This document shows, one piece after another, positions 10,052 to 63,180 of a stretch of 64,000 nucleotides of DNA. This DNA comes from Blasia pusilla (Eukaryota), in the NCBI GenBank assembly GCA_050084515.1, contig CM114271.1:10788001-10852000 (forward strand), read 5' to 3'. Each line of letters begins with the position of its first letter. The first letter of the stretch is position 1. The position numbers were made by a program, and so were the translations under genes. Under the pieces are notes generated by a model. It searched no databases. It had not been told where the DNA came from and saw only the letters and a program-made list of their open reading frames with translations.

Positions 10052-10532
10052 GGATGCAAAATGAGGTTTTAGATTGTACTTTTATTTTTTTCTCAACCTT
10101 CACTTTGATCTTGAACTCTATTCAGCCCCGGGCAAATGAAAGATTTTTTCCAGACCTTGGATGGAAAAAGTGATTGGTTCCACACTTATGATTCCACTGA
10201 TTTTTCAGTTTTCTAAATTTTGTGCAATTTGCAACTCGTCGGACTCAGAGGGGTTGCCAAAATATGGAAGAGGAAAAAAAAACTGTGGGACTGCTTAATA
10301 TATGAACAAAAAAGTGCAAAAAAATTTAAACAAAAATTTTCCTCTCTTCAACCCAACGGAAACTCTGTTCAAAAAAAATATCTATTGCGGTTGAAGGTAG
10401 TTTCCTCTCTCCTCTCTCCTCTCTTCCTCTCCTCTTACTGCACCTCGTTGGATCCCCCTAACTCTAGATAGAAAATATCACATCTCCTTGACAAAACCTA
10501 CTACCCTATACATATCCATCGTCCGATGGGAA

Positions 10533-16299: not shown

Positions 16300-18900
16300 G
16301 CTCCTACTCCATCTCCTCTGGTTGGTGGTGGTCCTCTACCACCATGTCCAGGAATAACTCCCCGACCTCTTCAGGACGACCGCCTCCACGCCCTTGGCTT
16401 GGCTCTGGACGTGCCTCTCGACGAAGGTCAAAACATCTATTCCCAGTGTGACCATATCTGTGGCAATAGTAACACTGGTACTATGGTGGGGCCATCCTCT
16501 ATGGCTTTTGAGCAATCGAAGGTGCTCGTGGTCCTTCCCCATGTTGTGCGCAGTCTCTCTGCCTATGGGCCCCTCCACACGTCCAAAAAGACAACATCGA
16601 TCCCTGTTGGGCAACATATGTAGGTACGGGTCGTTGCCTCATAGGCTCATGGTACCCACCCGGGTCTCTGGGCACACTAGCCCGCTCCCATGGTATTGGT
16701 GCTTGCTGTGGCACTTGTAGGGTCACCGTCACTCGTAGACCCGTTGACTCTCGAGAAGATCGAGCGGTCACTACGTGCTCCTCACTCATGTTGAGCTCAA
16801 TATGCTCAGACAACTCGAAGACCACCTTCAATGTGGGCTTCGCTGTGTGAATCAACACCGCATCTCGGACTCTCCTCCATAGTTCTCGGTCCAGAACCCC
16901 GTACCAATATTGGTCTAACTGCGCCTTAGTCACTCCAGAAGTAGCAATGATAACCCTCCTCATGCGCACAAATGCCTCTCTCAGACTCTCACCTGATGGT
17001 CGCTAAAAATCCTGTAGACTCTTCAACTTTTCGGTGCGTATGCCTTGGTAGCTCTTCCCCAAATGTCGGAAGAACTCCACTATGGTACTAAAGTTGGGTG
17101 GCCCTCTACCACCAGAGGTCTCTGCCACATCACCTGTCTCTCTGCCCTCCTCTCCATCTAGTCTCTGGGCTGATGGTGTGCGTGATACCCAAAATTTTGT
17201 ACTTTTAGAGATTTATACATTTTGATTCAAGGAATACAGATTCTATGAAGTGAAGATTGTACATATAAGATTTTTTTAGATATTATGTTTGTGAATTGGA
17301 AGAATAAGTAATATTGAAATGGATCACAAAGCTCCTAGGATAATACAGAGAGGTGAAAAATCAAGGATTTTCCTTAGAGGAGATGGAAATACAGAAACGA
17401 AGTCTAAAGACTAAGAGCGACGCTTGAAAAAGACAACGAAGCCTTATTAAGAACTTGTTAATGGAGTGATTCACTCTTGAACGAAGCATAATGAAGACGA
17501 AGAGGAAGAAGTACTTTGCTCTTCAGCAAAGCAGGAAGAACGAATCACTTGGAACAAGAGCAAAGAATGCAGCGCTTTGTCCTCAGGAAGAGCTTCGTCC
17601 TCAAGGGAAGAAGAAGAAGTCTACACTTAGCAACGAAGCGAAGCTAAGACTCAAAGTGATTTCAAGCGGCACACTGTTAGAGTAGTTAGGTTAGGAAGAG
17701 GCATGACTTTTTGGACCAGATAGGAAGTTAGGACCGTTACGCCCAACGGATTCATAGTGATCATAGGAAAAGATAAGAGAACCGAAGATCAAGGTAGTTA
17801 CAAAATCTCAATAGACAATAGATTCGTAAGAGACGCTTCAGATCTTTGGACCTACTAATGCCTTGGAAGATATTTAAGAAGCATGAAAGTAGCTATCCTC
17901 ATCATTCTTTCACGAAGTCCTTATGTTGTAGGAATGGTTCGAGCAAGGGAGTAGTACCCTCTCGAGCTTGTATAACACTTTGAAGCTTTCTGATTCTTGA
18001 TGGAGTAGTAAAGCACTCATTTCTTCATTCCGATGTGCGATGCATATGTTTGAGAATTCTTATTGGGTCTGCAGAGTGAAGAGTGAATCAGGAGAACACT
18101 TTCATCATTAGAATAATCAACATTGAGTCGTAAGAAATCTGTTCGACAGAGAGTAACCTGCCCAGACGGATTGAGTTCCGAAAGTAGGAGAAGCCAGCTT
18201 CTTGTTGAGGTCTCTTTGAGGTTCTTTGATGTTGAGTGAAGATCTACCTGAGCGTGAATTCGATTCCATTGGAGAGAATCGAGGAAAGAAATCTTGGTAC
18301 TAAGAGAAAGGAGAATACACTGATAAGTGATTGAATCCGAATTGTAAACACTTAACTACAACTATTGCAAGATAAATGCCATCTTGAACTCTCTTTCCAC
18401 ATAATCGTGATCCTCGTGGGGATTGAACTTATTAAATTAATGTAAAAAGATCAATTCGTAAAATTCTTATACATTACACGGTGGGTCTCTCTCCTCTCAC
18501 GATCCCATCATATGCCTCGTGACCACTAGTGAATACATACTCTGGAGCCCAATACATCCTCCAGGCATCGATCTCTACTGAATACAATGATCGAAACTCC
18601 ATATAGTCATCCATCGGAGGACCCTCCAAGTGTTGGAACAACCCCTTTCATGCCATGAAAGGGTTGAACTGTGTCGGGGTCCGTATCTCTTGGAAGTCGC
18701 ACCACATGTCAAACTTCGGGATAAAATCATCTAAGTCGATAGTGCCCAGTGCACCCTAGAAATGACGCATACCCCAATGGCCCATATCGTCCATCTCTTG
18801 ACAAGTGACATTGCCTCCGTCTGCGATCTCGTCACCAGACCCAGTGTCTAGTGATGACGATCTAGCCACGGATGGATGTCGAGGTAGGTCCTCACTCATA
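16300..18900 (-). pseudogene. Gypsy gag, split by a solo LTR
   Basis: Homologous to copy-1 gag; SFWTCGGAHRQRDC degenerate knuckle in ORF 16499-16969. Confidence 0.75.
17181..18478 (+). mobile_element. Solo LTR (~1.3 kb) inserted in Gypsy gag; same family as 29080-30373
   Basis: (C/T)GTGATAC...CATTACA ends; long similarity to 29080-30373; imperfect TSD TGGTG/CGGTG if the start is 17179. Strand arbitrary. Confidence 0.8.
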
Positions 18901-26040: not shown

Positions 26041-27544
<1,504 letters not shown>

Positions 27545-29079: not shown

Positions 29080-30373
29080 TGTGATACTCACAATTTTTTA
29101 CTTTTAAAGATTTACATCTTTTTATTCAAAGAAGACTTGTATATACACTATGATTTTGATATTATGGTTATTATTATATATTATTATGGAGAAGAATGAG
29201 TAAGATTAAAGTGAATCACGAAGCTCCAAGGACAAGGCAGAGAGATAGAAAATCAAGGATTTTCTTGAGAGGAGAGGAGAATAAAATAACGAAGTCTAAA
29301 GACCCAGCAAGAATCTTCGAAAGGACAACGAAGCTCTATTAAGAACTTTTCTATGAAGTGCTTCGCTCCTGAACGAAGCATGAAGCATAAAGAAGAAGAG
29401 AAAGAAGTACTTTGCTTATGAACAAAGCACGAAGAACGAAGCACCTAGAACAAGAACAAAGAATGGAGCGCTTCGTCTTCAGATCAGGAGAAAGAGCTTC
29501 GTCCTCAAGCGAAGCGAAAGAGGTCCAGACTTAGCAGCGAAGCGAAGCTAAGATTGATAGTGATTTCAAGCGACACATAGTTAGAACAGTTAGAATAGGA
29601 AAAGGCGCAACTCTTTGTATCAGATAGGTAGTTATGACAGTTTTGTTTTGCGGATTCATAGGGATCTTAGGAAAAGAGAAGAGTACCATAGATCTAGGTA
29701 GTTACAAATGTTGAAGAGACACCTGCTTCATCAAGAACGCTTCGAATCTTTGAAACACTCCTACTTCAGAGAGTATTTAAGAAACATGAAAGTAGCTATC
29801 ATCATCATTCTTTCACGAAGTCCTTCTGCTGTAGGAATGGTCCGAGCAAGGGAGTAGTACCCTCTTGAGCTTGTATAACACTTTGAAGCTTTCTCATTCT
29901 TGATGGAGTAGTAAAGCACTCATTCCTTCATTCTGATGTGCGATGCTTATGTCTGAGTATTCTTTTTGGGTCTGTAGAGTGAAGAGTGAATCAGACAAAC
30001 CTTCCTCATCAATGGAATAATCAACATGGAGTTGTAGGAAATCTGTTTGACAGAGAGTAGCCTGCCGAGACGGATTGAGTTCCGACAGTAGGAGAAGCCA
30101 ACTTTCTTGTTGAGATCTCTGTGAGGTTTCTTGATGTCGAGAGGAAATTTAGCTGAGCGTGCTATCAACTCCACTAGAGAGAATTGAGAAAAGAAACCTT
30201 GGTACTAAGAAAGATCCGAAGATATTGATAAGATATTGAATCTAAATTATTCACACCTAAATACAACTATTACAACAGAATTATAATTTGGAACTCTCTT
30301 TTCATCAAACAATGATCCTCTTGGGGATCGAACTCAGTAAACGACTGCAAAATTGAAACTCTTATACATTACA
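29080..30373 (+). mobile_element. Solo LTR (1294 bp) inside the CACTA element
   Basis: TGTGAT...ATTACA ends, TSD ATGCT/ATGCC, paralogous to 17181-18478. Strand arbitrary. Confidence 0.88.
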
Positions 30374-31553: not shown

Positions 31554-32513
31554 ATGGAAAACCATTGGCAACACAATACCCAAATGAGAATTGTTGAGCT
31601 TCTCCCACTCCCAAGTGGCGGCCTCTCTAAAGTGTTCATGTATCATGAGACCTCACCCGGATGCACATCGGGTACGATGCCAACCTCTCTTTTTGCACGG
31701 ATTGTAGCATGCATCATGGCCTCCCTTGAATTGCCCCATGATGAATGGTGCCGGCTTAAGAAAAACTTTGTGAAATTGGGTGGGAGAGAGACTGATTGTC
31801 TCCGTGACGCCACACATGGCATTTCTGGGAATTGGGTAAGAGTTTTGGAGAATTTCAGATGGACCATCCTGAATTCCCAGAGGAATGAACGAGGTGTTAA
31901 ATATGTCCACATAGATTGGTTTTCCTTGTCCATCCAAGATGGAAGATTGCATGACCCTGATGACCATGATCTATTCCAGAGTAAATCAAGCTCACTGGCT
32001 ATTATGAGGGAAAATAAATTTTATTGGAAGAATGTGAGGGAAGGGAAACCACTCCCAACTGGTCCGCCACCCACTCCACATCCAACCATGTTTGGTCGAG
32101 TGAGGGTAGTATTTGTCCCTCAAAATATATCTCAATGGAGGTTGACATGGATGAAGAGAAAAATTCTAGAATGTGGTGGGCATGTGGATGACACGGTGGA
32201 TAGGAATACCACCCACTTGATTTGCCGATCCTTTTCCAAAGCCTGTAGACATCATGGAAAGACATTGATTCATTTGTGGGTCTCATCTCAAGGTCTGTAT
32301 GTGCTTCATTACAAGTGTGTCAAAGAATCCATTGAATTGGGGCACTTGGTAGAAAGTAGTCTACATGACTTGATTGGAAACAAGCTAGTGAAACAGCCAT
32401 ACCGGATCAACCAAGTCTTAAGAGACATGGAGGAGCTTACAGATGAGTGGCAAACCACAAATGACAAAGAAACACATTCCACCAGTTTGGATAGTTGCAA
32501 AAGTAGTGCATAG
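31554..32513 (+). CDS. CACTA cargo ORF (319 aa) with C-terminal BRCT-like domain
   Basis: MFGRVRVVFV...WMKRKILECGGHVDDTVDRNTTHLIC...LHYKCVKESIELGHLV fits the BRCT pattern (F.G..F, GG, THLI, S.....G). Confidence 0.6.
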   Translation: MENHWQHNTQMRIVELLPLPSGGLSKVFMYHETSPGCTSGTMPTSLFARIVACIMASLELPHDEWCRLKKNFVKLGGRETDCLRDATHGISGNWVRVLENFRWTILNSQRNERGVKYVHIDWFSLSIQDGRLHDPDDHDLFQSKSSSLAIMRENKFYWKNVREGKPLPTGPPPTPHPTMFGRVRVVFVPQNISQWRLTWMKRKILECGGHVDDTVDRNTTHLICRSFSKACRHHGKTLIHLWVSSQGLYVLHYKCVKESIELGHLVESSLHDLIGNKLVKQPYRINQVLRDMEELTDEWQTTNDKETHSTSLDSCKSSA

Positions 32514-32745: not shown

Positions 32746-33784
32746 ATGGATGTCCCACCTAACCCTCCCTACTGGGGGAAAAATGCTCATCATCTCGCAC
32801 CCATAGGCAATCCTCCACACAGCTTTGGACCTAGAACAAGCAGGTTACCATTACAACATCCAGAACAGATCAGAGCTCGTGATTCCAAACTTTGGGATCG
32901 GGAGCAAGTCCTTATGGGACATTCTAGAAGTGACCGGATGAGATGTCCTTGTGCAGCTTGCAATGGGTCTCGTACACTGGCCTTGCGGAATGTTTTCACT
33001 CACCTTCAGAAACATGGAAGGCATCCAGAAAAAAGAGTTTTTGGAGTTCTAGGTGATGAGGACTCGTTCAATGAAGAGTGGAGGTCCGCATCGAACATTG
33101 CCAATGTGGCTAGACATGCACAATTTTTGGGACAAGCAATAGGCAACCTTGATGTGCGAGATGGAGGTGAGGCAGGTACCACACACGAGGAGTTTGAAGA
33201 AAATAACCGTGATGATGGGATTGATGCTGAAGGTGATAGTGTTGATCATGGGATTGATGTGCAAAAAATGGTCCGTGACATCTTCCAAGATCTTGATGCA
33301 TTTTATGATGATGTTGAGAGCATGGAAGACCTCACTGATGCAGCCAAAGAGGCTGGAGAGGACGCAGACAATATTGGGCAAGAAGAGGACGAGAAAGCAT
33401 GGATGTTTGGGTCGCATGAAACTGTTGCTGATGCATGCAGGCCTCTGTTCCATGGCTCTAAGTGTACAAAGTTGGCCTTTGTACTCATATTGATGAACAT
33501 CTGTGGGAATCATGGTGTCCCAGCGGTGCTTGTTTCAAGGTTACTTGCATTCTTGAAGACAACAGTCTTTCCTATTGGGAACACGACTCGTGGAAATAAG
33601 TACGAGGCAACTAAATTATTGTCAAGTCTTGGATTGAATTACAATTCCATTCATGCTTTCCATGATGGCCATGTGCTCTTCAGAGGAGAGCATGCAAATT
33701 GATCAAGTTGCGCGGTATGTGGACAACAAAGGTATAGGAATGTGGGCAAGTCCATGTAGCCTACAAAGGTACTTTGACATTTTG
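32746..33784 (+). pseudogene. CACTA transposase, 5' part (transposase-associated Zn domain and start of Tnp2)
   Basis: MRCPCAACNG...FTHLQKHG; ACRPLFHGSKCTKL; LGLNYNSIHAF..GHVLFRGEHAN; ends KVL*HF at the Mutator-like insertion. Confidence 0.85.
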
Positions 33785-34186
33785 GAGGTGCGGTAAGAGG
33801 AGAGAGGAGAGAGGAAACTACCTTCAACCGAAAGAGATACTTTTTTTTAAGAGAGTTTCCTGTGATTTGAAGAGAGTTTCCATTGGGTTGAAGTGAGGAT
33901 ACTTTTTGTGTGAATTTTTTTGCACTTTTGTGCTAAGTTCTTAAGCACTCCCACAGTTTTTTTTTCCTCTTCCATATTTTGGCAACCCCTCTGAGTCCGA
34001 CGAGTTGCAAATTGCACAAAATTTAGAAAACTGAAAAATCAGTGGAATCATAAGTGTGGAACCAATCACTTTTTCCATCCAAGGTCTGGAAAAAATCTAT
34101 CATTTACCCTCGGCTGAATAGAGTTCAAGCTCAAAGTGAAGGTTCTGGAAAAATGAAAGTACAGTCTAAAACCTCATTTTGCATCC

Positions 34187-37100
34187 TCAAAGTGGTTTGT
34201 TTAAAATACTTCGCACTTCTTTGAGGGACAGAATTGGTTGGTGGATTCCTACTCCTACCTCCGACTCTCTTAAAACTACAAGCAACACATAGTACATGTG
34301 CTTACAAGGGAAATTCCTTTTGCCACTTGTCTCTCTTTGGACAAAGTCATCACATGAACATGTGGGAAAGCAATAAATGTGCACCACATACACTCCTGTG
34401 ACACTTGATTTTACAGTGTTGTTCCTGAACCAATACATCCTTCCTATTCCATTGCCACTATGGACATCTTTTGTGGTGATGATCTCCATTTTTGCCTCTT
34501 GAGCTGATGCAATTCGCTTTGCTCTCTCCACCGTTGGCCTACACATTCTGTTTCTCTTCACCCCATTTCTAGACTCAAACATAAATAGTGGATTGAGATC
34601 ATCCACCTTCTCCGGGTACATGTTGACGTCAATCTTGGGTTGAATACAAAATACAAAGGTCTTTGTAAAGCAAACATGCTCTCAACTTCCTCCGTCTACG
34701 AGTCTGAAACCGGAACTTATAAGATTGTCCACTTCGTCTTGAGTGCAATTCGTACGTGCGGCGATGGGCCAAATCGTGGGGGTATTCCCTGGAGCTCCAA
34801 TGGAAACCGGATAAGACTTGCGGAAAGCGCAAGATTCATTTGGGCAAAAGAAGTACTTCAATTGATCCCCGGTCCTCGTGAAACGATCAAAGGTTTTCAG
34901 TCCCCAAAACCCAGGCAGTGGTCGTCCAGTCCTTGCACAGTTCTTATTTAGGAAAGTGCTGCATGCTCTCCTAATGCCATCAGATCATGCCCTGCAAGTA
35001 GGTCCACGTCTCGGGTTGCTCTGAGATATATGCCACCGTTTCAGGTTGCAATCCACCTCCATGACCGGAATCCCATATTGTTGAACCATCCCAGCGACCG
35101 GATGTTGCGAACTTCCAGCAACGGAGGGCTTTTGAAATAAAAAATTCACTGATTTTGGGGAAGTTACTCCATCACGGATTTGGGAGCAGTTCGGTGTCCC
35201 CGAATACCTGGGCGGGATAATTTCCTCATTCGAATCAATCACCGGACTCGTTCCTCGATGCTGCCTCTTCACTTGCCTGAAGTCAAGATACTTATCTGGT
35301 CTCTACGAGTCTCACTCGGACTGCTCTACCACCATCTATATGGGACGTCTTGAAACGCGCCCACAAATATCCCCACCAATGTGTACGTCTTGCTCGAGGG
35401 GAGTTCCTGCTACGCACCAGTTGAAGGCTTCCACATAGAGTTTTTAATCACCAGATCTCACAGCCGCGATGACATAAAGCTCGTAGATCGAAGGCCCCCT
35501 TCCTTTTGTTATGCCTTTTGTGAGGAAGATATGGGATGCTGTAGACTGTAGCATTGCTCTTGTTGGCATGCCTCCACAAGTGAAATTTGTTGGATGCTTG
35601 TGCTTGAGGAATGAACACTTTCTGCTCCACTTGTGTTGGGGCAGAGGGCATTTTCATGAATGTTCAATCCCTACAACGATGGCAATGTGAGAAGGGAACG
35701 AAAATAGCTCACAAGTCAAAAAAATAAGCTACTTGTCAAAACCAGACGGGTTGCAAGGCCAAGGCATGAACGACTCCACGACCCGTCGGGTCCCCACATG
35801 TTGCAACACCCAGGAACCACCTATTGCAACCCGTCTCATTTCGACGGGTGGCAAGAACCTTTGGCCGCTCCAGGCTGGAAGATCCAAGTGCAAGTCATCC
35901 GAAACCCATCCAGATTGAACTATTTGCAGGCCTTGTATACATGCGACTTGCATACTTGTATACGGGTTGTACCAAAATTCTTGATGCAACCCATCTGTTT
36001 CCGACGTGTTGCACACTCGGGAAACCCGTCTGTTTCCGACGGGTTGCACACTCGGGCAACCTGTTGCATCGGACAAGTTGCTTGGTTTCTTCGGTTTGAA
36101 ATCCCTATAGTTCCCACGCTTCTCAACTTGAGCTGCAACTTTTCAAACAATTCTCAGCGTGAGCTGGACAAGACGAAATAGTGAACTCACCTGCCACATG
36201 AAGTTTCCCCATTGTCTCATACGTACAGTCCACCAACTCAGCCAAGAGCACAACTCTTTGTACTTCCCCTCAATCACATGCTTCCTCCACCACCCATGAA
36301 GTTCTTTTGGAATTCCATGGTCTGTTTCAAGGTTTTGTTGTCCTTGCAGTGTTGGAGCAGAGTGACATGCTGTGTCCTCTTATTCTCCTTGATGCAAGAT
36401 TTGGTGTATCGGGTCACACTCTGTTGCCAATGGAAAGCATCCAACCTTTCCCTCTTCGGTTGAACCTCTCCACCCCAGAACACTTCCCTGATAGCAATCC
36501 ACCTAGTTTGTGCATTGTCCGCCATGAACCCATAAATTTTCGGAGGTGGCCTTTTGTTTTCCTTCACCACCTCCAATAAGAGTAACCAACACATCTTCAA
36601 ACTGCCAACGTCTTCTGCTTTTACTTCAAAGACAAATATAGTTTTGTGTCCCTTCTCCACATGGTCATAAACGTGAGCACCCATTGTCAACCATCCGTTC
36701 AGCACTCTGTAGCAAATATCAAAGCTTACCCAGGTGCCGTAAAGATCTGCCCCTTCCCTCATTTGATCTATAAGATCAAGGCCACTCGACGGACCTATTG
36801 TTGACATTTTGAACACATAGGCCCTGGATCCTTCCCCTCCTTGGCCCATGAATTGCCAGCTCTGAATGAATGGAAATCTGGAGTTGGCCTTGATTCTGGC
36901 AATGGCATCCATTCCGGCGGTCTTTCCATCCAGTACCTCTATTTGACGCAGCAAATTCTGGAAGCATTCAAGATCAGCGAGAAATGCGAGATTTTCCCAG
37001 AGTTGTTTCTCCTCAGCAGCCGTGACCTCGCCTTCTATAGGGATTCCAAGAAATTGTTCACAAATTTGTGATGCTGTTGTGAGCTTCATCACTCCGGGCT

Positions 37101-38202
37101 TTGAACCCGGAGAGTTTCTGTAGACCTTGGCCACTTTCTTGGCCACATCCTCCTTGATGTGTCTTTGAATTGCATCGGTCACAGGATGATTGTGGGAGCC
37201 AACATGAACTGCCAGCCTTATGTACTCTGACGTGGAGCCCAAGTCATGGATAATGAAAAATATGTATGCAGGACACGCTCCAACGCAGAAAGGGGATGCT
37301 TGACAATGAGGACATCGATGGCCTCCCGGCGGTATGGTAGCACCGATCTCATATGGAGTTTGTGCATTCTTGGGGGGGAATTGCGACGTATTGACCCGCT
37401 CGTTGCGCTGTAGATACGGGCATGCTAGACTTCTACACTCCAAAGCTCCAATGCATTGGCGGCAGTAGACAATCCAAAGACCATTTGGAATTGAAGCACT
37501 AGTCCGTTGAATCCTGCACCATCGATCACAATCAGACTTTCTGTCCATACCCTTCAAGCGTCCTTCATCTTTCTTTTGAGCAGGAGCAGCAAGTGGAGGC
37601 AACTCAAAAATGCAATTACCATCGTACGTGGGTGGCAGCTTGTCGACAAGAATGTGCTTGAATATTTTCAAGGGCTGAAACGATAGCAAACTATTGCTTG
37701 ATACTCGCAAGAGGAATGAGAAGGCAGACAGAGGGCCCGATTGGTGTCCGACAGATCCACTAAGGTTAACGACATCCGGAATGTCTTCAGAAAGTACAAC
37801 ATTGTTACGAGCATGTGAAGTTGGAGTCGATGCCGGATCTAGTGAGCTAGGAGTTGCAAACATAGAGCTCGTTGCGCTAGGAAATTCTCAACCGTCTATT
37901 TGGGAAACTGAGGAATTCAGAGGCAAGCCGTAAACTCTATATTGACCATTTGCTAGAGGTAGGAGATTCCATACTTTATGGTCTCCAATCACAGGCTGGA
38001 CTATCTTACCTATAATGTCCTCCGTACCGTCCATCCTAACATCCTTGGATACAGAGATAGTTCCAATTTGGAGAAGAAATCGAACTGAGAGAAAATTTCC
38101 ATCCACTGCTATGAAAGACTCACGAGCTTGCGGTCGAACGATTTCTGATTGAGGAAGGGCCGCTAGATGACTACCACAAGTGAGCTTCACATAATTATCC
38201 AT
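34187..38202 (-). pseudogene. Mutator-family DDE/SWIM transposase, copy 2; intron 36190-35671
   Basis: 529-aa ORF with WVSFDICYRV, GFMADNA, LDAFHW; SWIM CSCDDF..PCKHM; paralogous to 5966-10051. Confidence 0.85.
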
Positions 38203-38389
38203 TCCCAGAAGATTCCACCGGGAGGAGACTAAGAATAAGAATGAGGATAAAAATGGGATTGGGAATGAGAATGATAATGAGAATGTTTAATTTATATTGA
38301 ATAGGGACTCGGATTCTCTTGACAAAATTTGACTGACAGGATGAAGTTTGGTAGGTGAGAATGTCTGACATGATGGATTCAATTCTGCT

Positions 38390-39330
38390 GCAACCTGACG
38401 GAGTCCGATGGGTTGCAGGATTTGGGAATCAGAGACGTGGGTTGCGAAGCACCCACTTCTATTTTTTGTTTCCGTGTCCCAATGCAAGTTGGAACCCGTC
38501 GGAGTTCGATGGGTTGGTACCCCCTTCTTGCCAACCAATGGTCTTTTGAGTCGATTTTGCTAGCATCAAACACAAGACATCGCTTGCATTTGCAAAGGAA
38601 ACCAATCGTTGGGGACTTTTGCAGGATTGTCCAACTCAGGGTAGATGTTGTGACCCGTCCGATTGCTAAGGGTTGCCTCGGAACTATGCATTGTCGCATT
38701 GTTACCCGAGGGATAGAAAAGCGTGCAACCTGTCCTGGTACCTCACCTATTACCCCAAGATAAGCGAAGCGTGCAACCCGTCGGCCTCTGACGAGTTGCG
38801 CAGGTACCGCGCCTTCTTGCCCAAAGACAGCGGAGGCGCGCAACCTGTCCGCCTCAGACGAGTTGCGCAAGTGCCTCGACTTGTAACGCTTACATGAAGG
38901 AAGCGTGCAACCCGTCGGCCTCCGACGAGTTGCACGGGTGCCCCGCCTTCTTGCCCAAAGACGGCGGAGGCGCGAAACCCATCGACCTTAGACGGGTTGC
39001 GCAAGTGCCTCGCCTTGTAACGCTTACATGAAGGAAGCGTGCAACCCGTCGGCCTGTGATGAGTTGCGCGGGTGCCCCGCCTTCTTGCCCAAAGACGGCG
39101 GAGGCGCGCAACCCGTCGGCCTCAGACGGGTTGCGCAAGTGCCTCGCCTTGTAATGCTTATATGAAGGAAGCGTGCAACCTGTCGGCCTCCGACGAGTTG
39201 CGTTGGTAGCCCGCGTTCTTGCCTGAAGACAGCGGAGGCGCGCAACCTGTCGGTTTCTGATGGGTTGCCAGGAGGACGGATGCCAGGAACCTGCGGAAAG
39301 TGTGCAACCCGTCGGAGCCGTTGGGTTGGT
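38390..39330. repeat. Intergenic palindrome array including about four 134-bp tandem units with two palindromes each
   Basis: Units recur at 38890, 39024 and 39158; e.g. GTGCAACCCGTCGG-CCT-CCGACGAGTTGCAC at 38905-38935. Confidence 0.9.
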
Positions 39331-40859
39331 GTTTTTCACGTCCAGACTTCCATAATGGCCGAAATGTCGCCGTCGGAATGACGATGCGACCCAACGGTCA
39401 GCCCAACGGCTCGAAAAGTAGAAATAGCCGAGGGTTCGCTCATTTCCGATTTTTTGTTTCGCGATCTCAATTGCTCTTCTATGCAGCGGTTGACCAGATA
39501 CCAAGGGGCGCTTTACACCGCGACTCATTGCGAGACGATTCGAGCAAACGATCGCAAGACGATTCGAGCTACTCATCAAGCCGACTCATCGCGACATTAG
39601 CAAGGGGACTCCTCGAGGCGACTGATCGTGCATAGAAAGCAATTTCCTTGTCCATAGGAGGCATTTTTGGGAACAATGACGAGGAAAAAAACTCAAGCAA
39701 GAAAGGTTGGGAGCTTCACTCCCAAGGGTGGAAGAACTCCTGCGTCACCATCTCCAGGGCCTCGTTTGGCCAATGAGATAAGGCAGCAAGAAATCGAGGA
39801 GTGGGAAAGGGAAGCAGAGATGCACAAGCAGGAGCTTCTTGGAAAACGTATTAAGGAGGCGCTCGAAAAATAGAACGCAGAGGCTGAGGCGTCGAAGTCC
39901 TTGAAGAAAAGGATCGCCGATGAAAAGCGTGAGAAGAAGCATCTGGACGTGTCGATGAGGAGAGCAGAATTGGAAAAAGCTCAAAGGGAAAAAGCGATTG
40001 CCATTGAAGAAAGCCCGGCCCGTCCAACCGAAAGTGTTGAGATGCAGGAAATGTCCCTGATGAAGTCCGGGGACACAATCAATATAGCGAAAACGCACAA
40101 AGTTCAAATGACGGACGATGAGGTCATGAGGACCGCCAGCGTGGAGATGGTGGACATCGCTGAAGAATCAGGAGAGCGGTCTTCCTCGTCTCTTAGCCCG
40201 GCGGAAGAAATCGACCTCTATCGGATCGACGAGTTTCCAGTGGACTTGCCAACTGCTGTCCCAGAGTAGTTGGCTGGCCAAAACACCGACATAATCTTCG
40301 AGCGGGTAAGAAACGATCTTGGATCTTTGAGTTATGTAAAGGGCCATGTTGCAATTCATTGGCAATTCAATGTAGTTTATTGACTTTGTCCCCATTGTGA
40401 TAGGTGGTAAAGCAGATGGCACTGATGGAGGCCAGAACGCCCCGATTGCGGACAATGGAGTACGTCCGCAAAATTCAGTCTGACGAGGATATCACGAAGC
40501 TGAAACAATCGGCAGTGACAACATCCTACGTCAACAGCTTCCCTCCGTTCTATGTTCAGCCTTACAATGAACATGGAACCCAAGCGAAGGAGGACCTGGA
40601 AGCGCTCGACACATTCTGGAGGATGAGAGATCAGGAATTCAGAAGGGCGATTGAGGGGACGGAATTCAGTTGGATGCAGAACCTGTATTTCTTCATCTGG
40701 GATGGAAACCACAGGTTCATGGCGTGGACTCAGTTTGCAGAGGAGCGCCCAAACTCATTGGAGGCGCATTTTTGCGTGAAGGCATTCGTGTTACATCCAT
40801 ACCCTCATCACATGGCGACGGTGGAGATGGCAATGCTTGCCATGAACACGTAAGTTTCC

Positions 40860-41680
40860 TCTTGCCGTCAGACTCCGACAACTTGTTTGACTCGCCACTT
40901 TTTTTGGCATGTTTTTGGCCGAAAGAAACTCGTCGAAGTCCGACGAGTTGCTCGACTGGCCGCTGTTTTAGGATTTTTTTGGCCGAAAGCAACTCGTCGG
41001 AGTCCCACGAGTTGTTCGACTGACCACTGGTTTAGGATGTTTTTGGCCGAAATCAACTCGTCAGAGTCCGACGAATTGCTTGACTGGACGCTGTTTTAGG
41101 ATGTTTTTGGCCGCAAGCAACTTGTCAAATTCCGACGAGTTGTTCGACTGACCATTGGTTTAGGATGTTTTTGGCCGAAAGCAACTCGTCGGAGTCCGAC
41201 GAGTTGCTCGACATGCTGCTATTTTTGGATGTTTTTGGAAGAAAGCAACTCGTCGGAGTCCGAGAGTTGCTTGATTGGCCGCTGTTTTTGGATGTTTTTG
41301 GTCGAAAGCAACTCGTCTGAGTCCGACACGTTGCATTCGCCGACACGGGAAGGTAATCGGAGTAGATGAGTTTGATTTTTGGCGTCAAAATGCAGCTTTA
41401 ATTGAAATTGTGCAACCTATCGGACTCCGATGGGTTGATATGTTCACTTTTCTTGCCGAGACAACTCTCTAAATACAAATTATCTAACAACCCGTTGGAG
41501 TCCGGCGGGTTGAAACCAGACAATCATAAATCTGAATGCAATCCGTTGGACTCCGATGGGTTGCAAGAAAAGTGAACATATCAACCCATCGGAGTCCGAT
41601 AGGTTGCACAGTTTCAATTAAAGCTGCAATTTGACACCAAAAATCAAACTCATCTACTCCGATTACCTTCCCGTGCCGGT
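40860..41680. repeat. Intronic ~65-bp tandem palindrome units followed by a ~115-bp-arm foldback
   Basis: AGCAACTCGTCGG-AGT-CCGACGAGTTGCT at 41180-41208; 41343-41457 is the reverse complement of 41562-41677. Confidence 0.9.
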
Positions 41681-43149
41681 ACACCATCCTCCGTGAATGG
41701 TCATTCTGGGACGCGTTGGGGCTTCTCAGGAAGTCCATGCTCGTGGGTCTCCAAGCGGAGCTGAAAAGAATAGAGCTAGTTCCGGAGGAAGCAAACCTGG
41801 AGAGTGCTGAAGATTTTGAACTTTGGCTGGATGACATGTGGGACAAGCCCATAAAATCTCAGGCTTCAAGACGACGTTCAAGGATCGCATCCTCCCTCAG
41901 GCTGACCTTGATGAAGAAATAGAGGCGAAGAAAAGTGATTTCCCAAAGAAGAAGTGAGATCTTCAGGAGTAGGCGGCCGATGCATCTTGACTAAGAGCTG
42001 CCCAACAGATGGTGTTCAGGTACCTCGTCCATTGTAAGAATGTAGGTACATGGCGAAAAATACTGGCAGCCTGCAAACTGTGGGCTTCTCCGCCTGATGG
42101 AGAGACATTTTCCATGTATGACATGGAGATGGCTCAAAGCATGTCCGACTGGGAGGTGGATAATTGTCCAATCTGGCTGGACTTCAACGACCCTGAGGAC
42201 ATAACCGAGAAAAATCTAGGCTTGCTCTATGATGCAGTGACTGCAAGTAGGGACGACATCCCCAATTTTGTGCAAGCTGAAGACTTTTTCGAAGAAGATG
42301 CGGAGGAGCAAGCCCTCGAGACAGCGGAGTTGGTGTCCAAGGTCATCACCGCCAAGGACAAATCTACAGCGGGTCTCAAAGCCAAGGCGAGGGGATGGAA
42401 GAATTCTGAGGCCGAGTCTTCCCAAAGAGAGGCTGAGAATTCAAGGCAAGAGCTGGAATAGTCCGGGCGAGAGGGGAGAGAGGGTCGGACCAGGTCCTCC
42501 GCAAAAAAACTCGACCAGAGTCTGAGGTAATAGAGACCCCAACAAGCCGATCGCAGACTCGGGAGAAGCGGAAGCGAGAGGCGTCAGGGTTGTCCCAGGG
42601 AGCATACCAGGATGTGGAATACACTCCATCATCCCTGGGAAGACATAGAGAAACAACGACTCGGACAAGCGTCATCATTCAGTGCAGTAATCTTCTGGAT
42701 GAGCTGAAAAGTTTCAGTTCACAAGCGTCAAAACCCGCCATCGAGAAATTGACAACGCTGGGACGGAAGCTTCAATGAAACGGGAATGCTCCTTGGACGG
42801 TCCATGGGGAGATCGAAGAGGTGGTGGTGGATCTCCTCTTCGCTGATTTGCCCTCGGGGTTGCGCTTGTGGGACGAGATCCGTCCGACGGAGTTCCAGAC
42901 TAGAATGTCCCTCTTTCTTATGACCAGATCATGCTCATGTTTTCCTTTGTAGACGCTTATCTCAGTGACAGGGGTTGTTTCTTAGTTTTGACTGGAGGGA
43001 GCGAGGACGAGCTCTTCAACCTCCAGTGCATCAAGAGGTCGCTGAAGTGGAGGACGGCGGAATCGTGGGTCATCAAGAACGAGTACCCACTCCAATCCGC
43101 GATGAGTCAAATCCGGGTAAGTGCTCTAAATCCATATCCAAATTGTCTT

Positions 43150-43480
43150 TCTCCGACGGGTTGCATCTCTGCATGCAACCCGTCGGATTGTTTGAGCTGG
43201 AGACTTCGGTGGTGCAATCCATCTAAAAGCGACGGGTTGCAAATTTACCGTAAGTCTCCATTGGGTGAATGCAACCCGTCGGAACCCGACGGGTTGCAAG
43301 TGCTTATGTTTTTTCCTTGTGTTTCTGGAATGTTGCAACCCGTCTGAAAGCGACGGGTTGCTCTTAGCCAACCATGGGTGCTCTAAGCCAGCAACATGTC
43401 GCCTTCCGACGGGTTGCTCATGGACAAAAAAATCACAAGACACTCGTAAAACAACCCGTCGGACTCTGACAGGTTGCTCC
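43150..43480. repeat. Intronic palindrome cluster
   Basis: Perfect TGCAACCCGTCGG-AAC-CCGACGGGTTGCA at 43270-43298 plus several variants. Confidence 0.9.
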
Positions 43481-45974
43481 AATGTTAGGATTATAACGAA
43501 GTTCTCAGGGGTTAAGCGAAGTTCTTTGGGGACATGTTGCACATTATGTCACCATACTGAGAGTAGACTAGTGGTCAAGTAGCTCTTTCTTGTTGCTGAC
43601 ATTGTTTCCAACGTGCTTCTTTACAGATGGACCACTCCTATGTTTACTGCTTTGTTCGGCCCGAGCACAACTTCCAGGTGTTTAAGATCCTAGATCCTAT
43701 CGATCCATGCTCCAATGGGTACAGCTTAGATAGTTTATACAATTCCCGCCCCCGAGAATTTACATGCAAGACAGTACCCCCTTACTTGGAGGAAGGGAAA
43801 AGTCGCCAGCCTTGATGCAAATGCTCATCGAGCTCTGCTCAAGGCCGGGTGACTTGGTGTTTGACTTAGTGGGCCTTTTAGGGGCGAGTATCAGAGGCGC
43901 CTCACAGAGTGGCAGGAACATTCTCTGCCTTGAGGGAAGGCAGCAACTGTTTGACCTTTGCAAAGAGGCAAAGGCAGATTACGACAGGCTAGTTGGGGCG
44001 TACAACTCTCCTCCGAAGCCGAGAGCTCCGATTCCAGACCCACCATTGGTAGTGACACCATCGTCACTTCCCACGATTCCAAAAATTGGAAGGGCAAGGC
44101 CGACAGTAATTCTGGAAGAGCTCTTGGACGATGACGAGTGAGTTCAAAGAACTCAAGGACCCATTTATTTGATGATGAGGCAAAAGAATTCATAGAATAG
44201 ATCAAATGTACAGTTCCGAGCTTCTTTCAGATGTAATAAAGGACAAGATTTTTTCGAACGATGATGGTGTTTGTAAAAGTTTGTTGAATATCTTTTTTGG
44301 TCTTGTCGAATGTGATCGTCTATGTACTCCGAGGACTTCTATTTTGCAACCCGTCGGATTTCCACGGCTTTCAACTTTTCACTTTTTGACCACTGCACCT
44401 TTTTAACCACTTCTAGGCAACCTGTCGAATTCCGACACGTTGGCTGCGTGAGTGATCAGACTCTTTCCCTATTGGTCCAACTTTAGAGATATTTTTGCGG
44501 GCTTCTTCACTTTGGCACCTTCCCCTAGTATTGTCAAACAAGGCGTAGGCTTCTTCTCTTCTCTAAGACGTGTTGGATTCCTACTACCTGTTGGATTGCC
44601 ATCATGGTATTTCCAAGGGCCGGAGCACATATTGATCTTTGGATGGGTGTCACATTGCAAAGCGTGCACAAGATATCTTGCCAAGGAAGGCGGTGGGACT
44701 CAAATCAGGTTACATGGGGCCGTTATGGTGTACCTAGGGGGTGCAAGGCTCTCCAATTCGCCAACATTTTCGATCCCCGTCTACAATCGACGAGAGGAGC
44801 CACTTGTATCCCAGGACATTCCTGTTGTACAGGAACCTAGGAGAGTTAGGAGTAAATTTGTAGATGACGAGGCTGAAGAAATCATAGACTAGATCAAATG
44901 TACATTTTCGAGCTTCCTTCGAGATGTTTTCAAACGATAATGGTGTTTGTAAAAGTTTGTTGAATATGTTTTTTGGACTTGTCGATTGTGTTTGTCTAGC
45001 TACTCAGAATTTTTATTTTGCAACCCGTCTGATTCTGACGGGTTGCAACTTTTCACTTTTTGACCACTGCAACTTTTCAACCCTTTCCAGGCAAGCTGTC
45101 GGATTGCGACAAGTTGGCTGCTTGAGTGATTGGACTCTTTCCTTGGGAGACCAAATTCTGAGGCATTGTGGTGGGCTTCTTCACTTTTGGCTCCTTCCCC
45201 TAGTATCGTCAAACCAGTCTTAGGCTTCTTTTCTTCTCTAAGACGTGTTGGATTCCTATAACCTGTCGGATTGCCATTTTGGATTCCCAAACAGTTGGAT
45301 TTTCGTGGGTGCAGGGTGGAATGGAATCAAATTCCATTCCACCCTGCACACTTCTCAAAATATTTCCTTTGTTATGGTGAGCTTGCTTGCAAGGGGTGCA
45401 AGCCATCTGATTCCGACAGGTTGCAAGAGTTCGAACCTGTTAAATTCCGACGGGTTGGGAGGGGTGCAGCTTCTCTGTTTATCAGATTTAGGATCTGAAT
45501 GAAGGGACATCAATTCCTCTTTACTCCAGACAGCTAACAATCTTTTGGTTTAATTATCATCTCCTGTGTTCACATTTCACAAAGTTGGTCTTTATTTGAA
45601 CCTTTCATTGAGATGAGATTGCTACTTCTGGTCAAATTATTTGCCAATGGTCCTCCAACAAAAATACCCTTGGGCACAGCTTACTGTAGACTGAGACAAG
45701 CAATTTGAAGAAACTTAGGCTCACATAGAGAGTGATGGAAATTTTTTTGTAGTGGTCTTATGATGTCTACTTGTTTTTCGCCCCCTGGAAAAAGGAGGTT
45801 TCTTTAGGCCCGAATGTGGACCACTACCTACTCTCTTCTAAAGATTTCATGAATTTGAAAGCAAACAAAAATTTCAAATATGTCAAAAAGTTTTGAAGAG
45901 AGGAGGCGGATTTGGCCCTTTTTTTTTAAGAGAGACTCTCCTCTCTTCCTCTCTCCTGCCAGAATACCAACCCC

Positions 45975-48670
45975 GACATTTTGAAATCATTCCTAGATTG
46001 AAACGGATGTACAGGAGCCTAAATATTTCAAAGTTATGACTTGGACAGCCAAGAACAAGAGTATCAATGACCTACAGTGGCACATCGGAGATTCAGAACA
46101 TTGGAGATTCATCAATCAAAGATGGGCAGAGTCTGCAAGAGAGACAAGGAATGTGAGACTTGGCCTCTCAACCGATGGAGTCAATCCATTCGGAGACAAG
46201 AACAATGTATATTCTTGCTGGTCTGTAACCATGCTGAATTACAACCTCCTTCCGTGGTTGACTACTAAGAAGTTTTTTGTCATATTGGTTTTGCTTATCA
46301 CGGGCCCACAATCTGCTCTTTCTACGAATATAGACGTTTGGATAGCTCCTCTTGTGGATGAATTGAAGCGCTTGTGGTACGAGGGCATTTGGATCCATGA
46401 TGTGGTGCAACGGGTTGGGAGACCAAACTCATTCAGTCTAAAAGCCCAATTGGTATTGACTTTGGGAGATTATCCAGCCCACAACATGATTTCCGGTCAG
46501 GCAACAAAGGGGTATTTGGCTTGTACAGCATGTGGCTCCAATTTCACTGGTGAGCATTCCAGACCTTTGAGGAGCATGAAATACATTGGACATCGACGCT
46601 TCCTCCCACTTGATCATCCTTACAGACATAGGGCATTACACTTAGTTCAATTCAACAATGCCCGAGAGCTTCGTGATCCACCTCCACGAGTCACTAAAGA
46701 GCAGATTTTGGATTGGGGACACCAAAAGACCACATACGACATGGAAAGAGGCACACGTGGGGGTTTAGAGGGGGGACCGGAACGCCAATATACAGAAGCT
46801 CCAAATGCTCAATGGGATTCAGGATAGAGATATGGTGTGAAATGGCAACGCATATTGGATGTGGAGTTGGACTACTGGCGGGTAATCTATGTCACCCATC
46901 CGCTCAAACGCAATGTCTACTATTTGCCACACCAGATGCTTTCAAGAATTTAGGCTCGTTTATCATCCATTTGTACTCATGGTTGGCATATGTGGTGTAA
47001 TAGGAGTTTGACCCTAGCAAACATAATCTAGACGTAATACATATTGATAAAAATGTATGTGAGAGCCTATTGAGGATCCTTTATGGGGAGAAGGACATAG
47101 AAATAGTGCGATTGGATCTCCAAGAGAGGAGAATACGTTCTCAATTGTGGTTGAAGGATGATGAGAACAAACCCAATGTGATATTGAAATACCACTCACC
47201 TTATGTTTGCACAGACACAGAGTGGAGAACATTTCTTTCGAGGCTTCAATCTTTGAGAGTTCCAACCGGCTGTGCAAGAAAGCATGTAAAAAACAAGAAA
47301 CTCGATAGTATGAAGACATACAATTATTATGTGCTTATGCAATAGATTCTGCCTGTATGCTTAAGGGGATTGATGCAGAAGCCGGTTCGTAATGCAATAA
47401 TGCAATTGTGCAAGGTGTTTGGTTGTATATGTGTGAAGGTCTTTGATCCAGCAAGCTTTCCCAAGCTCAAAGATGATATGGCAGAATTATTATGCGATTT
47501 GGAGATCCATTTTCCTCCCGTCTTCTTTGATGTCATGACTCATCTCGTTATCCATGTTGTGGAAAAGCTTGGACAGTACGGGTCTGTTTATACGAGGTGG
47601 ATGTTCCCACTAGAGTGTTTTATGAAAGTCTTGAAAGACCACGTCTTGACAAGATACAGGCCTGAGGCCATCATGGCAATGGGTTACATTTCACACGAGA
47701 CCTTGGGATATTTGACAGAGTATATGACCGGGTTTGAACATGTGAAGGCTAGGATATGGCAAGCGGAGGAAGATGAGTGAGCGGTAGGTGAAGTTCTTCA
47801 AGGCAGAGGTTCCCCATTGCAATTGCCGAGGCATATTTGGCTGATGGCTCATGAATATGTGTTGCAAAACACTAGTATAATGCAACCGTGGTGGAGGTAA
47901 GTAAAGGGTTGAATGACTCAAGCCTACGTGTTGTTGCATTTATTTGGCTTCCTTGTTTTTTTTATGTCGTCGCTCACCAGATACCGGTTGGCTAATAATG
48001 GCATGACCTCTACAGGAAATATAATATGGAGAAAAACGCACATATTGGGGGTGGTGCGGGGGGCTTTCCACCATTCTTAGAATGGATTCGATTGGCGATC
48101 CGGGAGCATTCAGCACTACACCCAAATATGGACCAGGATGTCTATCTTCTGTTTGCTCCACCTCGAATGTCCGTCTTAGCTTACAAGAGAATGCAAGCCT
48201 ATGGAAAGCACTTCCGTGTGGTAGATCAAAATGACGATCATTATGTCACATATGATTCAAGGTTGATATGTGTATTCAAGCAAATGAGCAATCACCAAGA
48301 TAGAGGATGGATGAAAATGGGATACATAGGAGAGCTAACTGACATATGGAAATTGGACTATGGGAACACATCCAATCCTGTCATTCTCATGAAAGGGACT
48401 TGGGTGCGACCAGATTGGCGTGGGGCTAGGGCTACAATGAAGGGTGATAGTGATGGATTCTTACTAGCAAACTTCAGGCAAATACAACTTGAATGGTGTG
48501 AACCTTTTGTATTCCCTAGTCAGGTTGAACAGGCTTTCTTCCTAGATGTGGAGGAATCGGCCGGATGGCGAGTAGTGTGCCACAAGCAGGCGAGGAATCA
48601 TAGGGTATCAAGTAATACTTTGGAGTTCAGTTTAGATGGCCACGGGGCTTTGAAGCTCCCAATAAAATGA
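45975..48670 (+). pseudogene. CACTA transposase, 3' part (Tnp2 core, DUF4218/DUF4216-type regions)
   Basis: RNVRLGLSTDGVNPF, TLGDYPA, GYLACTACG, YIGHRRFLPLDHPYR, FPPVFFDVMTHLVIH, RWMFPLECFMKVLK, EPFVFPSQVEQAFF. Confidence 0.92.
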
Positions 48671-51599: not shown

Positions 51600-52125
51600 A
51601 CATAATGACTGGTATAGTTATTTGGATATTGTCAGTGAATAGGATTGTAAATGATATGGACAAGTCATTTTAATGACTTAGTCATTCTCTTATGACGCAT
51701 GAAGTCGTTATTTATTACTGTGAGCAGTCACTCTTAATGACTCGCCCAATCATTATTAATGACTCGTCTAGTCAATTCTTAATGAATCTAGTCATTCTTA
51801 ATGAAGCGTCTAGTTAATCTTTATGACTCATCCAGTCATTCTTTATTACTCGTCTAGTCATTCTTTATGACTAGACAGGTCATTCTTTATGACTTGTCTA
51901 GTCATTTCTTATGACTTAACCTAGTCATACAAAATGACTAGGTTAAGTCATATTGTGTGACTATGTTGAGTAACAAAAAAGAGACTCAGATATGACTACC
52001 CTCGGTTTTAGTAACAACTTATACGACTAGGAGTAATTTTTATTACTAGAGTCTGGTTAAGTAATTACTTAGTCACACATGCCCGGTTTGAGTAACAGCT
52101 AGTCATTCTTCTAAGTCATCCAGAG
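51600..52125. repeat. CACTA subterminal repeats (AGTCATTCTTTATGACT-like)
   Basis: Dense direct and inverted TGACT/AGTCA units next to the right TIR. Confidence 0.85.
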
Positions 52126-52143
52126 GGGGTTTTTGTACTAGTG

Positions 52144-62149: not shown

Positions 62150-63180
62150 GGTTGCCACGATGCGGTCATTGCGACCCCTTTGTCTTGCTCTTCATGTTGG
62201 TTCTCGCTTGAGACCATCCACTATTGTAGATCTTATAGGCGCAGGCGCCATTTCTCTATTGCGGAGCGATGCCAGAATGCTTTTCGATCTAATTAACTGA
62301 GCGAACCACATTGATTCATTGAACAACATGCTAATCTTCGAGAATCCGGGTAGAGATGCCTGTCAAGAAATGTGAAAGTTATATATCTAGAATATATATT
62401 TCAATATGTATGAGTTTAAGATGATCGATGATTCAATAGTAGAGGCCTCAAGGGTAGATTCTGAATCAAGAGCTATCTGTATCATCAATGTGTCCTCCAA
62501 AGGATTTCTTGATTCTACTATTTGTGGCAAATGTATATGCTTGCCTTTATGGACTCATTGCGACCCCTTTGTCTTGCTCTTCATGCTGGTCCCCCCTTGA
62601 GGCCGTCCACCCTTATAGATCGTATTGGCGCAATTTCTTTGTTACGGAGCGATGCCAGAATGCATTCCGATGTAATTAACTGATCGGACGCCACTGATTC
62701 ATTGAACAACATGCTAATCTTCGAGAATCCGGGTAGAGATGCCTGTCAAGAAATGTGAAAGTTATATATCTAGAATATATATTTCAATATGTATGAGTTT
62801 AAGATGATCGATGATTCAATAGTAGAGGCCTCAAGGGTAGATTCTGAATCAAGAGCTATCTGTATCATCAATGTGTCCTCCAAAGGATTTCTTGATTCTA
62901 CTATTTGTGGCAAATGTATATGCTTGCCTTTATGGACTCATTGCGACCCCTTTGTCTTGCTCTTCATGCTGGTCCCCCCTTGAGGCCGTCCACCGTTGTA
63001 GATCGTATTGGCGCAATTTCTTTGTTACGGAGCGATGCCAGAATGCATTCCGATGTAATTAACTGATCGGACGCCACTGATTCATTGAACATCATGCCAA
63101 TCTTCGAGAATCCGGGTAGAGACGTCTGTGAAGAAAGGTGACAGTTGTATATATAGAATATATATTCAATATGTAGGGGC
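62150..63180. repeat. Tandem repeat, 383-bp period, about 2.7 copies (more diverged copy near 63440-63680)
   Basis: Identical ORFs at 62406 and 62789; GCGACCCCTTTGTCTTGCTC at 62171, 62560 and 62943. Confidence 0.92.

Follow-up and report, generated by a model that had tools for sequence, protein, structure and literature searches.

A dispersed 27-bp dyad in the non-coding DNA of a Mutator-like element of Blasia pusilla, possibly a binding-site array for an element-encoded protein

Introduction

To our knowledge, the VANDAL elements and their VANC proteins are the only proven case in which a transposon recognises its own family through arrays of motifs in non-coding DNA. Family-specific motifs that lie in subterminal DNA or in terminal inverted repeats (TIRs), and that are bound by an element-encoded protein, are also known from En/Spm, with its TnpA sites, and from MuDR. 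Here we describe a 64-kb stretch of DNA from Blasia pusilla (assembly GCA_050084515.1, contig CM114271.1, positions 10,788,001 to 10,852,000), referred to below as the window and numbered from its first nucleotide, which holds two inverted copies, A and B, of one Mutator-like element. A 27-bp palindromic motif, which we call the dyad, is scattered through the non-coding DNA of this element, and the larger copy, B, also carries accessory (cargo) exons, one with a ParB-like fold and one related to N6/N4 DNA methylases. Our preferred interpretation, to which we would give a probability of about 0.45, is that the dyads, as an array specific to the family, serve as binding sites for a dimeric protein encoded by the element and acting on its transcription or chromatin.

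Among proven systems the closest analogue would appear to be VANDAL21 (Hiun) of Arabidopsis and its protein VANC21. As described in the report of that system (PMC5735166), the target of VANC21 is a family-specific 9-base motif, concentrated in the non-coding parts of VANDAL21 (introns, intergenic and terminal DNA) and often arranged in tandem repeats differing between copies, and binding to it is linked to loss of DNA methylation. The Blasia element resembles VANDAL21 in being a member of the Mutator superfamily with accessory genes (its transposase has a SWIM finger and a MULE-like core, and its cargo comprises the ParB-fold and methylase exons), in concentrating a short motif in the non-coding DNA of the family, here within the 64-kb window, and in having tandem repeats, variable among related copies, as carriers of the motifs. 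It differs in the motif itself, which is two-fold symmetric, 27 bp long and fixed in its gap where that of VANDAL21 has 9 bases in one orientation, and in its accessory genes, which encode a ParB fold and an N6/N4 methylase, no VANC-type Pfam domain being found in the cargo open reading frames (ORFs) scanned. Binding and loss of methylation have been shown for VANDAL21, whereas the present element is known here from its sequence.

The closest description of such a system is perhaps that of the giant Plavaka elements (EnSpm/CACTA) of red algae, which are reported in a preprint (bioRxiv 10.1101/2025.02.11.637652) to carry the accessory genes PAG2 and PAG3, the accessory proteins being a PF01555 methylase with a SET domain and a ParB-like protein with a putative 2-oxoglutarate (2OG) oxygenase. 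According to the same preprint, tandem inverted-repeat arrays adjoin the ParB-like accessory genes, the best HHpred match of the ParB-like protein is 7BNR, and homologous accessory genes occur in Mutator elements of Chondrus; its authors suggest self-binding. Comparing with the published description of PAG2 and PAG3, we find that the Blasia element shares the ParB-like N-terminal domain (7BNR is among the top structure matches here too), the accessory PF01555 methylase, and inverted-repeat arrays beside the ParB-fold gene, one upstream of it (38766-39268) and one in its intron (40866-41334). It departs from Plavaka in its Mutator-like transposase and in its dyads, which are spread over the whole of the non-coding DNA, the intron of the transposase gene included. 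Neither a SET nor a 2OG-oxygenase domain was matched by Pfam in the window ORFs scanned, nor was the latter in 13 homologues of the ParB-fold exon. Similar ideas on transposon self-recognition are already in print.

Two further groups of sites invite comparison. Those of En/Spm and AtMu1c are also short, family-specific motifs, partly arranged as inverted pairs, and are bound by a protein of the element. The subterminal sites of En/Spm, Ac and Mu lie in the terminal few hundred bases, whereas 34 of the 41 dyads in copy B are internal; the classical subterminal form can be seen in the CACTA-type element beside B (51726-51962). The sites of ParB-parS, KorB-OB and Noc-NBS are palindromic like the dyad, and the dimers that occupy them have an N-terminal domain that shares the fold of the cargo exon. 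We know of no relation between the dyad sequence and those of parS, OB or NBS, and, unlike the sites of bacterial and plasmid ParB-parS systems, the exact dyad is absent from prokaryotic and viral collections and has its setting in a eukaryotic transposon. As the fold matched in the cargo exon is the N-terminal one of ParB, without the helix-turn-helix, the term parS-like, which was applied to the dyad in the first-pass annotation of this window, is an analogy only.

If the dyads are bound by a protein of the element, they would represent a second, independently evolved form of transposon self-recognition through non-coding motif arrays, using a toolkit (a ParB-fold protein and an N6/N4 methylase) that would here have been borrowed from bacterial mobile elements. 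The dyad is also a clean marker for annotating a high-copy family and, being long, symmetric and strict in its gap, is directly testable.

The dyad and its confinement to one element family within the window

The degenerate consensus dyad, GCAACYCGTCGG-N3-CCGACGRGTTGC, spans 27 bp in a two-fold symmetric 12-3-12 layout. Three exact copies are present, at 38907-38933, 41181-41207 and 43271-43297, and the number of copies with up to three mismatches is 29 in the window, seven of them in copy A (8097-8449 and 10231-10257); shuffled sequence gave none at either level (100 shuffles for the exact form). These counts bear out the first-pass annotation, which had reported a palindrome with a 3-nt spacer dispersed through the element and perfect copies at the second and third of these places, and add the first. 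A half-site search with CCGACGGGTTGC on both strands found 17 perfect sites, a number that rose to 48 when one mismatch was allowed and to 82 when two were, compared with a mean of 3.1 expected at the last level from mononucleotide shuffles. Every one of these (17/17, 48/48 and 82/82) falls within the two element copies, whose combined share of the window is 25%, and all 82 are confined to 7351-10257 or 33982-45458, so that the earlier impression of a motif limited to the two Mutator-like copies holds throughout the window. Under relaxed scoring, with up to seven mismatches, 52 dyads are found, again all inside the element copies, B contributing 41 and A 11, of which two overlap.

The distance between the arms is nearly invariant. 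For 66 of the 82 half-sites a partner with no more than three mismatches stands at a gap of exactly 3 nt, and for most of the remaining 16 the partner at this distance is more decayed. When gap lengths were counted for pairs with at most four mismatches over the 24 arm positions, 37 of 39 pairs in the window had a gap of 3 and two a gap of 2, with no pairs at gaps of 0, 1, 4, 5 or 6; the persistence of the spacer, first noticed by inspection, is thus upheld by spacer-length statistics. The gap sequence is variable, with 15 different triplets, and each array has a preferred triplet particular to it. The base flanking the arms is A in 53 of 104 cases, which amounts to a weak extension of the consensus by one pair. 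The inner heptamer, CCGWCGG, is itself a near-palindrome; in the 35-bp array of copy A (8097-8293) the inner T of the left arm is changed to A, and CCGACGG stands in the same orientation on both arms.

Across the 104 arms, 194 of 1248 positions depart from the consensus. CpG transitions account for 52 of these departures (27%, compared with 11% under uniform change, or about 2.4 times as many), and a further 23 represent a G/A variant at arm position 7. The earlier proposal that many variants are CG to TG or CA changes, as expected from decay of methylated cytosine, is therefore right as to an enrichment but not as to a majority, such changes being the minority. A pair of arms contains four CpGs, and the observed/expected ratio of CpG is higher in B (0.78) than outside the element (0.58). 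Outside the window, the exact dyad had no match in prokaryotic genomes (596 billion bases), JGI metagenomes or IMG/VR viral contigs, and a full-text literature search with the four arm 12-mers found no description of the motif, the matching papers bearing titles unrelated to transposons.

Position of the dyads within the element copies

The window is eukaryotic in character, with GT-AG introns and several types of transposon, and comparison of the window with itself reveals the two inverted copies of the Mutator-like element. Copy B was placed at 33796-45592 from self-BLAST, alignment and a read junction; its left end is the point where homology to copy A stops, and its right end is uncertain, the last dyad ending at 45458 and the read junction lying at 45592. 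Copy A (about 5700-10422), which is inverted relative to B, has about 90% identity to B 33796-38500 and lacks the cargo part, B extending for another 7 kb that is absent from A; translated similarity (tblastx) to the cargo of B was found nowhere else in the window. Neither a TIR nor a target-site duplication was found for copy B in the window, and the continuation of the family past 45592 that is visible in the reads is not present there. Copy B is a dead copy, since it contains in-frame stops (39871-39873, 40267-40269 and 42776-42778) and frameshifts near 36306 and 43747, which are indels relative to most genomic copies as seen in the reads.

All 41 dyads of copy B lie in non-coding DNA, where they form six clusters, and none falls within an exon as modelled, in agreement with what the first-pass annotation had stated about exons. 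As modelled, exons make up about 55% of B and non-coding DNA about 45%, and the chance that six clusters would all be non-coding is about 0.008 (0.45 to the sixth power, with the clusters treated as independent draws). Dyads occupy about one fifth of the non-coding DNA of B, at roughly one site per 130 bp. Counting from the left, the first cluster is a single subterminal dyad with an asymmetric left arm (33982-34008), situated 186 bp inside the left end and identical to A 10231-10257. The second comprises five dyads (35728-36047) within the GT-AG intron of the transposase gene (about 35668-36189), where the number of dyads differs between A and B. The third, of 12 dyads (38390-39330), lies in a divergent intergenic region of 1.5 kb that is flanked by the start codons of the transposase (ATG at 38201, minus strand) and of the ParB-fold gene (ATG at 39677, plus strand), and it includes an array of 134/67-bp units (38766-39268). 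The fourth consists of 11 dyads (40925-41607) in the intron after the ParB-fold exon, carried by a 64-bp array (40866-41334) and a foldback (41340-41679), and the fifth of six dyads (43138-43477) in the methylase intron of about 43120-43629, among them the perfect copy at 43271-43297. The last cluster contains six decayed dyads (44346-45458) located 3' of the methylase stop codon (44139-44141), in a region that is partly a 371-bp duplication, 676 bp apart (44246-44616 and 44922-45290). Copy A has about ten dyads (8063-8504) in the orthologous transposase intron (7956-8561), in 35-bp and 100-bp units.

The sequence that carries the dyads differs from place to place, from the 134/67-bp and 64-bp units of B to the 35-bp and 100-bp units of A (8078-8343) and irregular spacings of 56-75 bp. 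Once the dyads are masked, no similarity is found among the nine clusters (blastn, word 7, E at most 0.01), which substantiates the earlier remark that the flanking repeat units differ. The foldback beside the 64-bp array has two 117-nt arms, 97% complementary and 106 nt apart, that are built of dyad-bearing sequence, and it looks like an inverted duplication seeded at palindromes; its identification as an inserted miniature inverted-repeat transposable element (MITE) was considered and rejected, as no flank duplication was apparent on reading the sequence. The longest perfect run shared by A and B measures 150 bp (B 33949-34098, A 10141-10290), the next longest being 65 bp. It lies in subterminal non-coding DNA and encloses the subterminal dyad, and the match suggests either that the end of the element is constrained or that gene conversion has acted locally.

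Retention of the dyads in other genomic copies

Reads of a whole-genome run, sampled at about 1 in 100, were mapped on 33000-46000 at a likeness of at least 90%, and the depths given here are sums over both strand columns. Depth is about 1000-1180 over most of the transposase coding sequence, 680 over the methylase exon, about 300 over the ParB-fold exon, 80-115 over the arrays at 38.6-39.9 kb and 44-70 over the left flank. The mapped reads are mostly (36,933 of 43,377) no more than 90-95% alike; they therefore indicate a large, old family, in which the arrays do not form a high-copy satellite of their own.

Read joints of three kinds reveal that dyads are retained at corresponding positions in most genomic copies, intact where those of B have decayed. 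In 82 reads an intact dyad is joined to B 35807 by 15 letters, at a point where B's own dyad is decayed, and these 15 letters are identical to the linker of copy A at 8405-8419. Another 106 reads show the intron of the ParB-fold gene opening with 15 other letters and then running directly into a dyad, and 121 show a dyad of this intron followed by 14 letters and the next dyad region at 41528. Together these joints indicate a short intron in the ParB-fold gene of most copies with dyads still inside it, and therefore the long 64-bp array of B and its foldback are expansions found in B or in a minority of copies. RNA reads were sparse (275-381 per run, mostly 90-95% alike); their strand bias agrees with transcription of the transposase from the minus strand and of the methylase from the plus, and their depth is about zero in the intron bin 35604-36037, with almost none over the intergenic arrays.

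The transposase and cargo genes

The transposase gene of B (34187-38201, minus strand) encodes an N-terminal region that is rich in cysteine and histidine and zinc-finger-like, a MULE-like core and a C-terminal SWIM finger. The nearest atlas neighbours of the core are clusters of PF10551 (MULE), with a best score of 0.95 and 178 shared features, and the SWIM finger scores 20.0 bits against a Pfam cutoff of 19.6. A search of 5.8 billion clusters yielded a single sequence relative, 30% identical. The gene has one clear intron running from GT to AG, which is the dyad-bearing intron of both copies, and in B it is disrupted by the frameshift near 36306 and by in-frame stops; 379 of 1082 reads have an extra C at 36306.

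The ParB-fold cargo exon (40404-40850, plus strand, with the motif WDGNHR) was recognised by structure, its AlphaFold2 (AF2) model having a predicted local distance difference test score (pLDDT) of 85.1. Foldseek gave 6sdk_A as best match (E 4.9e-4), and VIA a Z score of 9.7 with a root-mean-square deviation of 1.9-2.1 over 91-95 residues. The model resembles the N-terminal nucleotide-binding (CTP-binding) domain of ParB, Noc and KorB, and also sulfiredoxin; the matched ranges of the ParB chains end before the helix-turn-helix, and only the N-terminal domain is matched. The exon has 76 distant homologues, 13 of which were examined with Pfam and gave no match. The fold of one homologue (P0022), in which a helix-turn-helix and an oxygenase domain were sought, was predicted with a pLDDT of 52 and is too poor to read. 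The exons downstream of the ParB-fold exon likewise gave no Pfam match, a sequence-profile search of the PDB with alignment A3 returned no matches, and no relatives were found in metagenome contigs with the smaller alignment A5. The second cargo exon (43734-44138, plus strand) corresponds to the C-terminal part, with motif I, of an N6/N4 DNA methylase: its Pfam match to PF01555 (18.9 bits, E 0.0015) is under the cutoff of 26.7, and 29 of its 30 atlas matches are to PF01555, the best at 0.96. No longer relatives of either the methylase exon or the ParB-fold exon were found, which is weak evidence.

Interpretation of the dyads

A binding-site array is favoured because the site is long and symmetric, its gap is strict in length and free in sequence, its carriers are unrelated, it is found in non-coding DNA only, and it is kept in most copies; the position of the subterminal dyad inside the most conserved non-coding stretch lends further support. 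The symmetry, the fixed gap, the independence of the arms, the restriction to the family in the window, the presence in six compartments and the retention in most copies all agree with the first-pass suggestion of a site for a dimeric element-encoded protein, and from them we infer the binding by protein, the dimer, its effect and a candidate binder. Each dyad would be read as a two-fold symmetric site by a dimer of the element's own protein. Sites of this kind would fill the subterminal DNA, the promoter region that transposase and cargo share, and the introns in each of the three coding regions; they would be renewed and multiplied whenever a unit that contains one is duplicated in tandem, and the resulting arrays could concentrate the protein on its own family alone. 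The bound protein might then control transcription or chromatin state, by anti-silencing or self-marking, possibly together with the neighbouring N6/N4 methylase, and might perhaps also aid end recognition. As candidate binder we slightly favour the ParB-fold accessory protein over the zinc-finger-like N-terminal region of the transposase, an attractive choice given that its bacterial relatives sit on palindromes as dimers and that its gene has arrays both beside it and within it.

Several observations weigh against such an array. The part of ParB that is matched is limited to the nucleotide-binding N-terminal domain, the helix-turn-helix not being shown, and a recent account (10.1101/2025.10.10.680097) describes this domain as not reading DNA sequence by itself and its fold as occurring also in proteins that do not bind DNA. 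The restriction of the dyads to the family has been established for the 64-kb window only, and, judged by read depth at a likeness of at least 90%, most copies seem to be without the cargo, like copy A. Conservation of the arms is also uneven. In the 134-bp array they are 90% conserved, compared with 72.5% for the linkers; in the 64-bp array arms and linkers are equal (91% and 90%); and between the transposase introns of A and B the dyad arms have 69% identity against 81% for other intron DNA, in a comparison of two dead copies with a non-orthologous middle to the alignment.

The best of the alternatives, although in our view an unlikely one, is that the dyads are binding sites for the transposase that serve transposition itself, through end recognition or synapsis, and that the internal copies are spill-over from duplication. 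In its favour are the subterminal dyad, which in A and B alike stands 186 bp from the left end and within the most conserved non-coding stretch, the six dyads in the last 1.1 kb on the right of B, and the zinc-finger-like region at the N-terminus of the transposase; copy A, moreover, keeps its dyads while lacking the cargo. There is also precedent, in that the AtMu1c transposase is reported to bind motifs located in its own TIRs as well as in non-autonomous relatives (10.64898/2026.08.24.746577), and the CACTA element next to B bears a different dyad, AGTCAT-N5-ATGACT, in eight copies near its end. The distribution of the dyads in B nevertheless fits this explanation poorly, as only one of the 41 lies in the leftmost 1.9 kb and 34 are in the internal introns and the central intergenic region. 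No TIR was found in the window, and the subterminal copy is the least symmetric of all and would not form a hairpin.

We regard as improbable, and rank next, the explanation that the dyads have no function and descend from a palindrome-prone minisatellite seed that was spread by slippage, template switching and gene conversion and tolerated outside exons. The arrays are unstable, their copy number differing between A and B and between B and most genomic copies; a foldback with 97% complementary arms of 117 nt adjoins the 64-bp array, and the dyads in dead copies decay at about the neutral rate of the family. What such a process leaves unexplained is the recurrence of one 12-3-12 unit in six compartments with unrelated linkers, the lack of drift in gap length, and the intact dyads at the same intron positions in most copies.

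More doubtful than either of these is a scheme in which the dyads would be loading sites for a eukaryotic, transposon-encoded clamp with a nucleotide switch of the ParB type, which as a dimer might spread from them across the non-coding DNA of the element and recruit or license the neighbouring methylase to lay down N6-methyladenine or N4-methylcytosine as a self label against silencing by 5-methylcytosine.

It is very unlikely that the dyads act as hairpins or cruciforms, whether in single-stranded DNA or in intron RNA, during replication, in transposition intermediates, in splicing or through small RNAs. Intact copies do fold as DNA hairpins, with a 13-bp stem, -14 to -17 kcal/mol and z-scores of -6 to -9. 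When the right arms were shuffled among dyads, however, the observed 465 Watson-Crick pairs of a possible 624 proved no better than expected (mean 458.6, sd 5.5), as 303 of 2000 shuffles were as high. One-sided changes in the arms exceed compensated ones (at pair 7 there are 17 one-sided and two double changes), the inner T is replaced by A on both arms in six dyads of the 35-bp array of copy A, and the conserved subterminal dyad, identical in A and B, does not fold. The arms therefore vary independently and base-pairing between them is not under selection, which disfavours a hairpin function and fits either two half-sites each held to the consensus or plain common descent.

That the dyad is a true centromere or partition site of the parS type, loaded by a canonical ParB clamp, is scarcely credible: the cargo does have the ParB N-terminal fold and the dyad is palindromic and repeated, but neither the helix-turn-helix nor the dimerisation domain is shown, no ParA turned up among the ORFs scanned (in a scan not aimed at ParA), none of the prokaryotic, viral and metagenome collections contains the exact dyad, and a nuclear transposon with introns does not need partition. 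What stands of the parS-like site and cargo ParB of the first-pass annotation is the N-terminal fold in 40404-40850, but not a domain that would read parS, nor any exact dyad in the prokaryotic or viral collections.

Surroundings of the element

Copy B was probably inserted into the transposase gene of a CACTA-type element. In a Pfam scan of ORFs it is flanked by a Transpos_assoc ORF (32746-33702) and, on the same strand, by a Transposase_21 ORF (46036-46827) belonging to the neighbouring element, and a weak DUF4216 ORF lies on that strand to the right of B (ORFs across 46036-48670). The right end of the CACTA-type element is at 52143, where the reverse-complement terminus starts CACTAGTAC. 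Its own subterminal dyad, AGTCAT-N5-ATGACT, occurs eight times at 51726-51962, within 420 bp of this end (0.25 expected), partly as a 22-bp tandem array. Just upstream of the Transpos_assoc ORF, an ORF at 31554-32513 has weak matches to the BRCT domain (E 6.7e-5).

Elsewhere in the window, a direct repeat of about 1.26 kb with 80% identity and a separation of 11.9 kb (17182-18436 and 29081-30341) possibly represents the long terminal repeats of an old retrotransposon. An integrase-core ORF is located at 11201-11674 on the minus strand. The remaining repeats comprise a 383-bp tandem repeat with 2.6 copies and 93% matches (62166-63175) and a perfect (CT)53 microsatellite (27435-27541).

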